A DNA stretch of 15,071 nucleotides. Origin: a virus (Duplodnaviria > Heunggongvirae > Uroviricota > Caudoviricetes). The position numbers were made by a program. Positions 6,601 through 12,600 of this stretch are shown piece after piece (position 1 is the stretch's first letter; each line of letters begins with the position of its first letter). The DNA is taken from the IMG/VR virus record IMGVR_UViG_2713896831_000009, one strand, 5' to 3'.

Positions 6601-9600
6601 TTTCGGTGCCCCCACCCAGCCCACCATAATTTGGGTATAGCTGAGTTGTAGCAACAAAAAAGACGCTAACGCGCCAATTGTCGCCGTATGCAATTCCAGG
6701 ACGCCAATCCCGACACCCACTTTATAAGGTGCCTGAACAGTGTAACGTCCCGGAATGGCAGAATCAATGTGCTGGTGGTCCTTCACACTCAACAAAATCA
6801 CGCCTGAATTTCCACAAAGGACTAAAGCACTCATGCGGGTAGTCTTTGCGAAGATAGATAACGCGCTGTGTTTCTGGCTCCCAACGAATAACATGGACAT
6901 AAAGCCCTCTTCCGTCACGAAACCAGCGGTTAAGTTCCTGCACAACTCGCCCCCCACAGTCAGGTAAAGTTCTCTGTGGTTACTTACAGCCAGGTGATTT
7001 GGTAATCTGCATTCATGCCGTAACAACAGGTGTTCAGCGACGCTGACCACCAGCTGTTGCGACAAACGGTTATTTGCCGTTAAACTGTTCATGCGTTAGT
7101 TTCTCCACAGACACAAAACGCCACGACGCCCGGAGCTGCACACTCGCGGGCGTCACTCTTTTCTGGAGCGCAAAAGATTTTGTAGACCAGTGCTGCATGC
7201 TCCTGGAGCTTCGAAATTGACAGATACAACTCATCATTAATTGCTGTCTGCTCGTGTGGCTCCACTACCCCATCTTCGATTGCCGAACGAATCTGCTTTG
7301 AGTAACTCCCGATCTGTTCGATGACTTCCAGCAGGCGCTGGTTTATATCGGCGTTCTCTACTTCCTCAATTTCAGGAAGCGATACAAACACCCCACCAGC
7401 AGACTGTGCGACAGCATCCGCAATGTAGTGAGTGCCAGCCGCGCGCTGTAAAATCATTGCCCATCCCAGCGGGAAAATCTGATCGCCATCTGCACGAAGG
7501 CGGTTGAATAAAGCGTTCTCTGTTACATCCAGCCACTCAGCAGCTTCAGCGTACCCCCCCGGCAACGCCGCGATAGTTTTTCTGACAGCTTTCACGTACC
7601 ACTCAGGCTGTTTTTCTACTTTCCAGTGATGCTTACCCACGGTTAGCCTCATCGTTCTGTGGTTAAAAATTGAAGGTGTTCTGTTAATCTTTCGGATAGA
7701 TATCCGGTCTTAAGTCAGATTTCGTAATTGCACCTGACGTGCATTGCTCAAGTTTTTTAGCCAGCACAAAACTGGCTTTTTTATAACCATTGAAAACCAG
7801 CCGTAAGTAGCCTGGTGTTGAGCCAACTTTTCCGGCCAACTCGCCCTGCTGTTCTTTGGTTAAAGAGTCCCAATACGCTTTCATACAATATGTACCTCCG
7901 ATGTACATATTACATGATTGAGATGAACCTTCAAGATACTTGTACCCTATCGGTACAAAGGTTTTAATTTCGTTATGAAAACAGTCCATGACATCCGGCG
8001 GTCTAACGCCAGAAAACTGAGAGATGGTGTTGGCGGGAATTCTTCCTTTGCCACCATGATTGATCGCGAGCCAACCCAGACCAGCAGGTTTATGGGAGAT
8101 GGTGCTACTAAAAATATCGGTGACAGCATGGCACGGCACATCGAAAAATGTTTCGACCTGCCTGTCGGATGGCTTGATCAAGAACACCAGACAACAAACA
8201 TCACAAAAAAACCTGATGTTTCAATTACTAACAAACAAATAACGTTAGTCCCTGTCATATCATGGGTACAGGCCGGAGCATGGAAAGAAGTTGGCTATTC
8301 TGAGGTTGATTTGAGCACAGCAGAAACTTATCCCTGCCCTGTACCCTGTGGCGAAATGACTTATATCTTGCGGGTGATTGGTGATTCAATGATTGATGAG
8401 TACCGCCCGGGAGACATGATTTTTGTTGATCCTGAAGTCCCTGCCTGCCACGGTGACGACGTTATTGCATTGATGCACGATACAGGCGAAACCACCTTCA
8501 AGCGGTTGATAGAAGATGGAACACAGCGTTACCTCAAAGCATTAAACCCAAACTGGCCTGAACCTTACATTAAGATCAACGGTAATTGCTCTATAATTGG
8601 TACAGTGATTTTCTCAGGAAAACCAAGAAGATACATAATAAAGGCCTAATCAATATTTATAACCTGCTTCGGCAGGTTTTTTTATACTTGACAATGTACC
8701 CTTGGGATACATAATGTATCTAAAAGAAACACAACACAGGCAAGATTAAACAAAATTTGGTTGTAACACGGCGTATGGCACATGCGTCGTTAGCGGTCTG
8801 GGGACGTTAAAGGGGACAATCCACTCCTTGCTCGGGCAAACAAACCAGGTAGCCGGAATGTGCAAGTCAATGATAATGCTGATAAGACGCCTAACCAGCG
8901 TGGCGATCCGGTTTGACGCCTGGGAAGAGACCAGGGTGCAACGATGAGGGTATTTATGGAGCCGCGACAAAGTGTGGTGCCGTAACTGGCTAAGTGCTCT
9001 CAGCGTTGTGGTAATCCGCGAAATGGCGCGGCGGTAAGTATGGCGGGGTTACTCTTTCCCCGTTGAGGACACCGGATTGTCAGGTTGACCATACGCCTGA
9101 GTGACAACCCCACCACAACAGCCACTGCTTTGGCGGTACCAGTTTGTACACTTGCTTCCGGCTGGTACCGCTCTTTTTACAAAACAGAGAAGAGCATCAC
9201 CGGACGACGGGCTCATAACCCAATCCATCCGGGCGGCTGCCACCGCAGGTGTTCTTCTCTGTTTTGTGGAGAAACTAATCGGCCTTGCAGGGTCGATATG
9301 ATGAGGAGCAACAAAATGGCTAGCGAACGCAGTACTGATGTGCAGGCATTTATCGGGGAGCTGGACGGCGGCGTATTTGAAACAAAAATCGGCGCAGTTC
9401 TCAGTGAAGTCGCTTCCGGTGTGATGAACACGAAAACCAAAGGTAAGGTCTCACTCAACCTGGAAATCGAACCATTTGATGAGAACCGTGTGAAAATCAA
9501 ACACAAACTCTCATATGTTCGCCCGACTAACCGCGGGAAAATTTCCGAAGAAGACACCACCGAAACGCCGATGTATGTCAATCGCGGTGGTCGCCTGACT

Positions 9601-12600
9601 ATTCTGCAGGAAGACCAGGGACAATTACTGACTCTTGCCGGTGAACCTGACGGAAAACTCCGCGCAGCAGGTCGTTAATATCATACTTAATAAACTGATT
9701 ATTTATCTCATCACTGAATATCTTTATATAGTGAGGACTGATTATGTCTCATAACTTAGACGCAACCGCAATTAATCAAATCCATGCCCTTATTTCTGCT
9801 CAGGGTGTTAATGAAATCATCAGTAAGATTGGTGCCGATGCTGTGGCATTGCCTGAGAATTTCCGCATTCATGATCTGGAAAAATTTAATTTAAATCGTT
9901 TCCGTTTCCGTGGTGCGCTTTCCACTGCCAGCATCGATGACTTTACCCGTTATTCTAAAGATCTTGCAGATGAAGGCACCCGCTGCTTTATCGATGCCGA
10001 TAATATGCGTGCCGTCAGTGTGCTTAACCTGGGTACTATTGATGAGCCAGGTCACGCAGATAACACTGCCACTCTCAAACTGAAAAAGACAGCACCGTTC
10101 TCTGCTCTGTTGTCTGTTAATGGCGAGCGTAACTCCCAGAAGTCACTGGCAGAATGGATTGAAGACTGGGCCGACTACCTTGTGGGCTTTGATGCTAATG
10201 GTGACACCATTCAGGCAACCAAAGCGGCTGCGGCGATCCGTAAAATCACAATTGAAGCGAACCAGACCGCTGATTTTGAAGATAATGACTTCAGCGGCAA
10301 ACGCTCCCTGATGGAGTCTGTCGAAGCGAAGACCAAAGACATTATGCCAGTGGCATTTGAATTTAAATGCGTTCCGTTTGAAAGCTTGAAAGAACGTCCG
10401 TTTAAATTACGTCTCAGCATTATCACTGGCGATCGTCCTGTACTGGTTCTGCGCATTATTCAGCTGGAAGCGGTGCAGGAAGAAATGGCTAACGAATTTC
10501 GTGATCTGCTTGTTGAGAAATTCAAAGACAGCAAAGTAGAAACCTTTATTGGTACTTTCACCGCCTGATTTCATTACTGCAAATGCCCCTGCGGGGGCAT
10601 TTATGGAAACGTAATTAACTCAATAATCGCCGGATGGTAAGGGCTTCTTTTTACCAAAATTCAGTGCGGTGCAGCGCACATAACGTGGAGAACAAAATGT
10701 CATTTATTAAAACTTTTTCCGGGAAGCATTTTTATTATGACAAGATAAATAAAGACGACATCGTTATTAACGATATCGCGGTTTCCCTTTCAAATATCTG
10801 TCGCTTTGCAGGGCATCTTTCACACTTCTACAGCGTCGCCCAACATGCGGTGCTTTGCAGCCAGCTGGTACCGCAGGAATTTGCTTTTGAAGCGTTAATG
10901 CATGATGCAACAGAAGCATATTGCCAGGACATCCCCGCACCACTGAAACGACTTCTTCCTGACTATAAACGGATGGAAGAAAAAATAGACGCCGTAATCC
11001 GTGAGAAATACGGGTTACCCCCAGTTATGAGTACGCCCGTGAAATATGCCGATCTCATCATGCTGGCAACCGAACGCCGCGATCTCGGGCTTGATGATGG
11101 CTCTTTCTGGCCTGTACTGGAAGGCATCCCGGCAACAGAGATGTTCAACGTGATTCCACTGGCACCGGGTCATGCCTACGGGATGTTTATGGAACGTTTT
11201 AACGATTTATCGGAGTTACGCAAATGCGCATGAATATTTTCGAAATGGAAGGGTTTCTTCGCGGGAAATGTGTACCGCGAGATCTGAAAGTGAACGAAAC
11301 AAATGCTGAGTACCTGGTACGTAAATTCGACGCGCTTGAAGCTAAATGTGCGGCACTGGAAAACAAAATAATACCAGTGTCAGCTGAACTGCCACCAGCA
11401 AATGAAAGTGTTCTGTTATTTGATGCTAATGGAGAAGGCTGGCTGATTGGCTGGCGTTCTCTCTGGTACACCTGGGGACAAAAAGAAACCGGAGAATGGC
11501 AGTGGACATTTCAGGTCGGGGACCTTGAAAACGTCAATATCACTCACTGGGCAGTAATGCCAAAAGCACCGGAGGCTGGAGCATAATGACCACATTTACC
11601 AATAAAGAACTGATTAAAGAAATCAAAGAACGAATCAGCAGCCTAGAGGTTCGAGACGATATTGAGCGCCGTGCTTATGAAATTGCTCTGGCATCGCTAG
11701 AAGAGGAGCCGGTGGCATGGCTGCATTCAGAAAATGGCTTAGGTATTCCGGCAATAACGAGGAGTAAAAACATTGCTGACAGTTGGTTATCAAAGGGCTG
11801 GTATGTTCAGCCGCTATATATAGCCAAGCCAGTGCCGGTAGTGCCAGATGCTCGTCCGTCTTTAAATAATGGCATAGTCGGTTTTGATGAAGGCTGGAAC
11901 GCCTGCCGCGCCGCCATGCTTCATGGTGCCAAACCTGTAAACCAAACTTACAAGTCACCACACACGCTGTTTGAACAAGTTGCTGACCTCTACGAAATGC
12001 AATTTGATGACGGTCGCACTTGTGCCTTTCACACTGATGCGCAAAAGGCTGCGCAATGGCTTCAGGTGTGCGACGGAAACAGGGTTCAGGAATACGTTAA
12101 GCTGGAACGGCTGCAGAACGCGCTGTCTGGCAACTCTCCGGTAAGTCCGGGTGGTTGGATAAGCTGTAGTGAGCGAATGCCGAATGATAAACAGTATGTT
12201 TGGTGTTGGGGGAAGTCTTACGGCTGGACTGAGTGCGATACCTTCGAAGGGTATTACGATTGGTCGAGAAACAAATGGTGGGCAGTTACTGACAATGAGG
12301 AAGAACAGGCATCGAAAGTAACCCACTGGATGCCACTACCGGAGCCGCCGCAGGAGGTGAAGTAATGAACAACTTAATGACAACTAAACAAGTCGCCGAT
12401 TTCTGTGGTGTTTCAGTATCGACAGTTCTTCGCTGGAACAGCGTAAACAGGAGAACTGGTCAGAAATACAGGCCTGACTTTCCAGATCCTGATATTAAAT
12501 CCTGCCCAAATAAATGGGCATCACACAAGATTTACAGATTTGCGGGAGTGATTGAGTAATATGTATTAGCTTAGATGTGAGCTGACACATCTATGCTTAG

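Follow-up and report, generated by a model that had tools for sequence, protein, structure and literature searches.

A putative repressor-controlled early-left operon of an Escherichia coli lambdoid prophage carries the CPS-53 yfdPQRS genes behind a structured leader RNA

The yfdP-yfdQ-yfdR-yfdS gene cluster was analysed in a 15,071-nucleotide (nt) stretch of viral DNA (Caudoviricetes; IMG/VR record IMGVR_UViG_2713896831_000009), which is referred to below as the window. It was found that these four genes are the same genetic material as the yfdPQRS cluster of the CPS-53 prophage of Escherichia coli K-12. With moderate confidence, the segment 8688-12559 that carries them can be regarded as a repressor-controlled early-left operon of an E. 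coli lambdoid prophage, whose effect on the host would centre on interference of YfdR with DnaA. The gene block and the activity of YfdR are already known, since the K-12 genes are present in most E. coli genomes and the function of YfdR was published in 2016; the block also occurs in many sequenced phages. The residual novelty lies in an obligate YfdP-YfdQ pair without a recognisable fold, in the mutual exclusivity of this pair with RdgC, and in a covarying leader RNA outside Rfam.

The initial annotation had placed five open reading frames (ORFs) at 9316-12365, and all five were located there, followed by an excisionase gene:

9316..9678, plus strand: yfdP, 120 amino acids (aa), family PF27127 (protein database label), Shine-Dalgarno (SD) sequence GAGGAG at 9303-9308
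9744..10568, plus strand: yfdQ, 274 aa, DUF2303 (PF10065)
10697..11233, plus strand: yfdR, 178 aa, HD-domain phosphohydrolase of the 5'-deoxynucleotidase type and DnaA-binding protein, 100% identical to K-12 YfdR
11224..11586, plus strand: yfdS, 120 aa, N-terminal coiled coil plus DUF551, start overlapping the yfdR stop by 10 nt
11586..12365, plus strand: ORF259, 259 aa, YfdT-like N-terminus (42 aa), mosaic middle part, C-terminal DUF551
12365..12559, plus strand: xis, excisionase, 64 aa (phrog_1553 excisionase, 4e-36; HTH_17 in Pfam)

Full-length comparison by BLASTP with the CPS-53 reference proteins of K-12 MG1655 (NC_000913.3) gave identities of 98.3% for YfdP, 98.5% for YfdQ, 100% for YfdR and 99.2% for YfdS. 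The DNA shared with K-12 formed one collinear block (window 9297-11710, 2414 nt, 97.2% identity). When tested by alignment, the proposed match to yfdP-yfdT in length and order held for the first four genes (98-100% identity) but failed for the fifth, because ORF259 diverges from YfdT after residue 42. ORF259 aligned with YfdT at residues 1-42 only (95%), and the remainder led into the DUF551 C-terminus (BLASTP, Pfam). The possibility that ORF259 is the orthologue of CPS-53 YfdT was rejected, full-length similarity to the 101-aa YfdT being absent; the fifth position is occupied here by the 259-aa DUF551 protein. The first protein had been given as 121 aa, a figure that includes the stop codon. 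CPS-53 (also called KpLE1) differs from the window in having no upstream repressor, promoter or structured leader of the kind described below, and its TorI is unrelated to the window excisionase.

In Pfam, YfdQ matched DUF2303 over its full length (residues 7-272) at 309 bits, above the gathering threshold, and DUF551 (PF04448) scored 64.4 bits in ORF259 and a borderline 22.2 bits in YfdS, for which the cutoff is 22. An upstream extension of the yfdR ORF to 10634 is possible; homologues and RefSeq begin at MSFIKTF, with GGAG 9 nt upstream. The yfdS/ORF259 and ORF259/xis pairs overlap by 1 nt each at TAATG junctions, the stop/start overlaps are continuous from yfdR through xis, and the translationally coupled genes of the operon end with xis. 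ORF259 is intact in the window, and the Prokaryotic Genome Annotation Pipeline splits it into two incomplete pseudogene pieces in a genome with 100% identity (NZ_CP102694); this call is probably an annotation artefact of the mosaic protein.

Several E. coli chromosomes matched window 9000-12600 at 100%, and in such identical genomes RefSeq names the genes yfdP, YfdQ family, yfdR 5'-deoxynucleotidase and YfdS family/DUF551. Among 5426 complete E. coli genomes, parts of 9000-12600 were found in 4884, at a median of 2 places per genome, and 461 genomes contained at least 80% of this segment in a single place.

The HD domain that had been predicted for the third gene was found to be intact. YfdR carries the metal-binding residues H50, H69-D70 and D119, by which it belongs to the HD-domain metal-dependent phosphohydrolase superfamily. 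Its residues H69-D70, E73, D78 and D119 align with H68-D69, E72, D77 and D137 of E. coli YfbR, which we take to be catalytic, at an identity of 24% between the two proteins. YfdR also matched the solved HD protein Atu1052 (PDB 2gz4; E 1.3e-13, residues 18-175) with the conserved positions aligned, and all three proteins share the HD fold family. The YfdR scores stayed below curated cutoffs for the YfbR-like Pfam family PF12917 (24.3 vs 25.9 bits) and for NCBIfam NF003009 (19.9 vs 122), and the Pfam HD_3 match was also below gathering. YfdR is a distant relative of YfbR and no equivalog. The RefSeq name '5'-deoxynucleotidase' derives from the K-12 protein itself; YfdR matched phrog_318, named 'deoxyribonucleoside 5' monophosphate phosphatase', at 1.5e-109.

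YfdR of the window has the same sequence as the protein that was assayed by Noguchi & Katayama (100% over 178 aa). These authors obtained yfdQRST as genes that suppress hda-185 in multicopy (Noguchi & Katayama 2016, PMC4776307). In their work, the minimal multicopy set that inhibited initiation at oriC consisted of yfdQ together with yfdR and one of yfdS and yfdT, and yfdP was dispensable; inhibition was seen in wild-type cells and in dnaAcos, seqA, DARS and diaA strains. Binding of DnaA by purified His-YfdR depended on Phe46, and the protein competed moderately with DiaA and DnaB, which also use this site in DnaA domain I (PMC4776307). Both statements in the initial annotation, that overexpression of the cluster inhibits replication initiation and that YfdR interacts with DnaA, are therefore confirmed by this paper, with the correction that yfdP was not required.

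Lambda P, Bacillus subtilis SirA and E. coli Dps and DiaA resemble YfdR in binding DnaA and depressing initiation, and SirA and DiaA use the same domain I surface (Phe46, corresponding to Phe49 in B. subtilis; PMC4776307). YfdR has no sequence relation to any of them. It differs also in needing YfdQ and a DUF551 or YfdT partner in vivo (PMC4776307), and lambda P differs in targeting DnaA domain III. Compared with YfbR, YfdR has the additional property of DnaA binding, whereas its nucleotide affinities are reported to be far lower and its function is said to remain 'elusive' (PMC4776307, citing Zimmerman 2008).

The following elements were found between the repressor gene and yfdP:

7975-8649, plus strand: repressor gene, LexA/S24-type (Peptidase_S24 in Pfam, 1.5e-26)
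8661..8678, plus strand: intrinsic terminator-like hairpin just past the repressor gene, 7-bp stem AACCTGC/GCAGGTT followed by the T run TTTTTTAT
8688..8715, plus strand: candidate early-left (PL-like) promoter, TTGACA-16-CATAAT, near-consensus (11/12 matches)
8695-8711: operator-like palindrome TGTACCCTTGGGATACA between the hexamers of the candidate promoter
9132..9178, plus strand: leader intrinsic terminator, stem GGCGGTACCAG / CTGGTACCGC followed by TCTTTTT
9179..9275, plus strand: structured leader RNA, a long hairpin of about 25 bp with arms at 9179-9203 and 9243-9267 (inverted repeat), plus a 3' flank
9268-9275, plus strand: nearly invariant 3' flank GGAGAAAC, able to pair with the U run of the terminator

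A palindrome of the same type, TGTACCCTATCGGTACA, was found at 7941-7957 in the repressor/cro intergenic region. The placement of the cluster in an early operon, as claimed initially, thus gained in silico support from the position of the candidate promoter right behind the repressor gene and from its overlap with an operator-like palindrome. In one identical genome, yjjG borders the prophage, which contains, in order, a cro-like ymfT (minus strand), the LexA/S24-type repressor (plus), a 667-nt unannotated stretch, yfdP to xis (plus), a low-GC orphan gene (minus) and the integrase gene (minus). The arrangement cI - gap - yfdP - yfdQ - yfdR - ... - xis - int has been described as common in lambdoid early-left operons (PMC12315714).

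The same architecture was observed in Salmonella phage ST64B (sb38 cI, sb37, sb36, sb35 ... sb29 xis, sb28 int), in which the repressor gene is followed by a gene-free leader of about 800 nt, by yfdP-, yfdQ- and yfdR-like genes, by variable small genes and by xis. Protein identities to the window were 60% (yfdP-like), 57% (yfdQ-like) and 67% (yfdR-like), and the leader hairpin was common to both at 84% DNA identity. The downstream accessory genes of ST64B differ, encoding DUF262, Ead/Ea22-like and 3'-5' exoribonuclease proteins.

Based on these data, the following course of events may be proposed. Loss of the repressor would lead to transcription from the PL-like promoter, and the transcript would pass through the structured leader and express YfdP, YfdQ, the HD phosphohydrolase YfdR, two DUF551 proteins and Xis. 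YfdR binds DnaA domain I at Phe46 and, together with YfdQ and YfdS or YfdT, blocks initiation at oriC when over-expressed (PMC4776307). At native expression levels, the most likely role is host take-over, in which DnaA-dependent initiation of the chromosome would be switched off during lytic growth while the phage replicates. This role is proposed because interference with host replication is the sole experimentally documented activity of the cluster; the roles ascribed to YfdP and YfdQ are likewise proposals.

Several observations weigh against host take-over by YfdR. Deletion of yfdQRST gave no initiation phenotype, the authors left it possible that the initiation block was an over-expression artefact, and YfdQ, YfdS and YfdT bound neither YfdR nor DnaA stably (PMC4776307). 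A terminator stands between the candidate promoter and yfdP, so that expression would require read-through or antitermination. In addition, Vibrio, Xanthomonas, Thalassomonas and Psychrobacter phages and 13 of the 68 genome loci with room downstream of yfdQ carry yfdP-yfdQ but lack yfdR, from which it follows that YfdPQ must have a function independent of YfdR. Finally, yfdP was unneeded in the published assay and yet is invariably linked to yfdQ.

This linkage was examined in 71 loci that represent different GTDB species, for the most part Enterobacterales, with Hahella in addition. The IMG/VR loci retrieved by YfdQ alignment were all 99-100% identical, and diversity was drawn from the GTDB scan and from annotated phage records. 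In all 69 cases with a full-length yfdQ, yfdP lay immediately upstream. The yfdR gene was downstream of yfdQ in 55 of 68 loci and adjacent to it in 49, and genes resembling yfdS or ORF259 were rare. A hidden Markov model search of seven diverse phages (ST64B, ArgO145, Vibrio 44E38.2 and D82, Thalassomonas BA3, Xanthomonas Bolivar and Psychrobacter Psymv2) likewise placed yfdP directly upstream of yfdQ in 7/7, with yfdR in ST64B only. Considering this constant adjacency against the variable presence of yfdR and the DUF551 genes, it could be concluded that the evolutionarily fixed unit is yfdP-yfdQ, that yfdR is a frequent enterobacterial companion and that the DUF551 genes are interchangeable cargo. 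The five-gene module of the initial annotation is therefore present as an order of genes, but the evolutionarily coupled unit within it is the first pair.

The 128-nt spacer between yfdQ and yfdR contains a hairpin, read from the sequence, at the point where the invariant pair gives way to the optional yfdR:

10581..10602, plus strand: GC-rich hairpin AAATGCCCC-TGC-GGGGGCATTT, without a T run

Neither protein of the pair could be assigned to a known fold. AlphaFold2 models of YfdP and YfdQ (pLDDT, the predicted local distance difference test, 75.6 for YfdQ) had no recognisable fold relative, and no match to RdgC, Rad52/Red-beta/RecT or another DNA-binding fold was obtained; fold and sequence similarity to single-strand annealing proteins (Rad52/Red-beta/RecT/Erf, Sak4, gp2.5) was also absent. 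The DUF2303 family comprised 1760 clusters at 50% identity (E <= 0.001), and the full-length proteins among the 150 listed were about 250-300 aa long, with no fusion visible among them. By sequence, one YfdQ homologue was found in the PDB, the entry 9o7m 'YfdQ Protein', with 36 chains of one sequence (E 8e-44). Its aligned part was 98.8% identical to the YfdQ gene product of Xanthomonas phage MET23-P3 and 96% identical to that of the Usme/Bolivar group. The 36 chains may represent a large YfdQ assembly. YfdP was rejected as a component of 9o7m, as the E. coli and Xanthomonas YfdP proteins matched no PDB chain. A literature search found no paper on this entry, which is unpublished; its deposition implies that the YfdQ family is under active study elsewhere.

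The leader upstream of yfdP was conserved more strongly than the gene behind it. In the approximately 150 nt ahead of yfdP, the DNA was 80-93% identical across genera in which YfdP was only about 60% identical. The fold of 9125-9320 had a minimum free energy of -87 kcal/mol (z -6.4). By eye, the stem of the terminator covaries across genera (GGCGGCGTC/GACGCCGC, GCGGCCG/CGGCCGC). The almost invariant flank reads in full GUGUGGAGAAAC and is followed by a small hairpin and then by the SD sequence.

Covariation of the long hairpin was evaluated in 34 distinct sequences by a script in which the register was fixed by reference to the invariant 3' flank (GU ahead of GGAG); the script was used because MAFFT inserted gaps into arm-only constructs. 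On the 5' side, the register that paired best without gaps was chosen, and in 30 of the 34 sequences it fell together with the conserved 'AC' that follows the T run. Over 22 stem positions, 87% of the pairs were canonical, and compensatory double changes were found at 18 of these 22 positions. In the controls, column shuffles gave a mean of 67% and a maximum of 70%, and slid registers gave 29-57%. Sequences that lacked a convincing hairpin reached only 13-17 of 22. At least 10 different stem sequences were represented (Escherichia, Enterobacter, Yersinia, Serratia, Proteus, Morganella, Providencia, Xenorhabdus and others). G-U pairs exceeded A-C pairs (56 vs 10), which indicates that the structure is formed on the mRNA-sense strand. 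RNAalifold on a plain MAFFT alignment recovered 10 basal pairs only, because the stems were out of register in that alignment.

No meaningful match to Rfam 15 was obtained at 9132-9297, even at E <= 10, and the element is absent from K-12 CPS-53, in which homology begins at 9297. Such a structured leader RNA, absent from Rfam, heads this operon in many enterobacterial prophages. A small ORF at 9101-9301 (66 aa) was considered as the cause of the conservation and was rejected, since conservation does not extend beyond 9126-9275 and the substitutions compensate each other within pairs. As candidates for the function of the hairpin, a site for RNase III or translational control like the lambda N leader, or a put-/nut-like processivity element, may be named. 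The E. coli version of the leader reads CGCTCTTTTTACAA, which is boxA-like and is not conserved in other genera.

The leader terminator of the window is a short version without a loop insert. In many relatives (L092, L100, L106, L110-L112, L119, L125, L128, L138, L142, L146, L148 and L155), the loop carries the conserved insert CTTCAAC...(A)GGAGG..GAAGATAATGTTCTG, in which an SD-like motif is followed by the two-codon mini-ORF ATG TTC TGA. In ST64B (locus L083), 3221-3339 (plus strand) gave a sub-threshold match to the STnc100 prophage small RNA (35.1 bits vs gathering 47, E 6e-4). It falls within the gene-free leader that separates cI from the yfdP homologue, upstream of the ST64B hairpin; the window leader has no such match.

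Specificity of this leader for yfdP was ruled out, as the same leader was found ahead of rdgC-family genes. In IMG/VR contigs, the gene after the 19-nt flank motif was yfdP in 66 cases and another gene, mostly of the RdgC family, in 45. The gene content was tallied in 88 contigs with at least 2.5 kb downstream of one exact 19-nt motif (loci L162-L281), a redundant sample that forms 3 and 9 clusters at 90% identity:

yfdP, yfdQ and yfdR: 40 contigs
yfdP and yfdQ: 11 contigs
RdgC and yfdR: 27 contigs
RdgC only: 4 contigs
yfdR only: 5 contigs
none of yfdP, yfdQ, yfdR and RdgC: 1 contig
yfdP/yfdQ together with RdgC: 0 contigs

The yfdP-yfdQ pair (51 contigs) and RdgC-family genes (31) were thus mutually exclusive, and both were usually followed by yfdR, which was retained behind either first gene in 72 of 88 contigs. 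Pfam RdgC scores of the leader-linked genes were 381 and 124 bits. Phage RdgC-family proteins (PF04381) therefore share with yfdPQ the first position after the leader. They differ in being one protein of about 305 aa against a pair of 120 and 274 aa, and the two are non-homologous: homology of YfdQ to RdgC was rejected at an hhalign probability of 0.14%, and neither YfdP nor YfdQ matched RdgC in Pfam.

The principal alternative to host take-over is compatible with it and does not exclude it. Under this alternative, yfdP-yfdQ would be a self-contained module that acts on DNA or recombination intermediates as an analogue of RdgC, for example by modulating RecA or single-stranded DNA (ssDNA) or double-stranded DNA ends, and YfdR would be a separate neighbour whose effect on DnaA would be incidental to over-expression. 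Such a function is possible, though it was judged rather less than probable. The invariable adjacency of the two genes and their alternation with RdgC behind one leader argue for it, as do the ssDNA and recombination genes that often neighbour them: a DnaQ-like exonuclease and a single-stranded DNA-binding protein (SSB) in Vibrio phage 44E38.2, gam-recT-exo-ssb in ArgO145, and a recombinase, an exonuclease and SSB in Bolivar. The 36 chains of 9o7m, which suggest a large oligomer, are consistent with it, and a yfdQ deletion was weakly sensitive to methyl methanesulfonate and H2O2 according to a citation in PMC4776307. However, YfdQ shows no similarity to RdgC by sequence or profile, and the models match no RdgC, annealing-protein or DNA-binding fold. 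The exclusivity itself may simply reflect mosaic allelic alternatives. It was observed in a redundant sample drawn from a single exact motif.

A wider proposal can be put forward only tentatively, and we regard it as doubtful in its entirety. According to it, YfdP and YfdQ would depend on each other as a module of a new fold class that is spread through temperate and other phages of Gammaproteobacteria, and RdgC could take their place at the head of the early-left operon. The pair would assemble into a large oligomer with DNA, RecA or replication intermediates as its target, and would be expressed behind an undescribed, strongly covarying leader RNA that controls entry into the operon. The invariant pair, positionally interchangeable with RdgC, and the leader RNA are the parts that could matter, and both are open to cheap, direct experiments in a model organism.

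The two other explanations are weaker than host take-over and the DNA-directed function of YfdPQ. It is unlikely that the main role of the operon is remodelling of nucleotide pools, in which YfdR would dephosphorylate deoxynucleoside monophosphates (dNMPs) for salvage, for pools biased towards the phage or to counter nucleotide-based defence, with its partners as accessories. The intact HD catalytic residues, the RefSeq and PHROG names (5'-deoxynucleotidase and dNMP phosphatase) and the retention of yfdR behind both alternative first genes are in its favour, but the nucleotide affinities of YfdR, as reported in PMC4776307 with reference to Zimmerman 2008, are much below those of YfbR, and the PF12917 and NF003009 cutoffs were not reached.

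Very improbable is cargo that benefits or defends the lysogen (for example by stress tolerance, by superinfection exclusion or by control over other prophages) without a lytic-cycle function: YfdQ production restored plaque formation in a BW25113 (SW1) yfdQ mutant (preprint), and 4884 of 5426 E. coli genomes keep at least parts of the block, cryptic CPS-53 included, but the PADLOC defence-system models matched none of the five proteins, the block should be silent in a lysogen because it lies within a repressor-controlled early operon, and yfdP-yfdQ in phages such as 44E38.2 and Bolivar, which show no repressor or integrase gene in the inspected stretches, would be hard to explain.

Other features of the window were also recorded. 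Two Rfam families scored above gathering on the minus strand, C4 antisense RNA at 6544-6631 (80.7 bits) and isrK at 6656-6732 (56.7 bits). Within the early-right region, both sites fall in its ash/ant-like part, and the same pair is present in ST64B (L083 611-799). Between xis and int, a 239-aa orphan gene (12842-13561, minus strand) lies within an island of 31-34% GC. It had no match in Pfam, NCBIfam or PADLOC, phrog_8440 (unknown function) being the sole match, and it looks like a moron or cargo gene. Window positions 1 to about 3350, upstream of the RusA gene, are not collinear with a genome (L001) that matches 9000-12600 at 100%, and around the DUF968/KilA-N region gene coordinates are offset from that genome by about 700 nt. 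This offset points to mosaicism or to an indel between prophages that are near-identical elsewhere.

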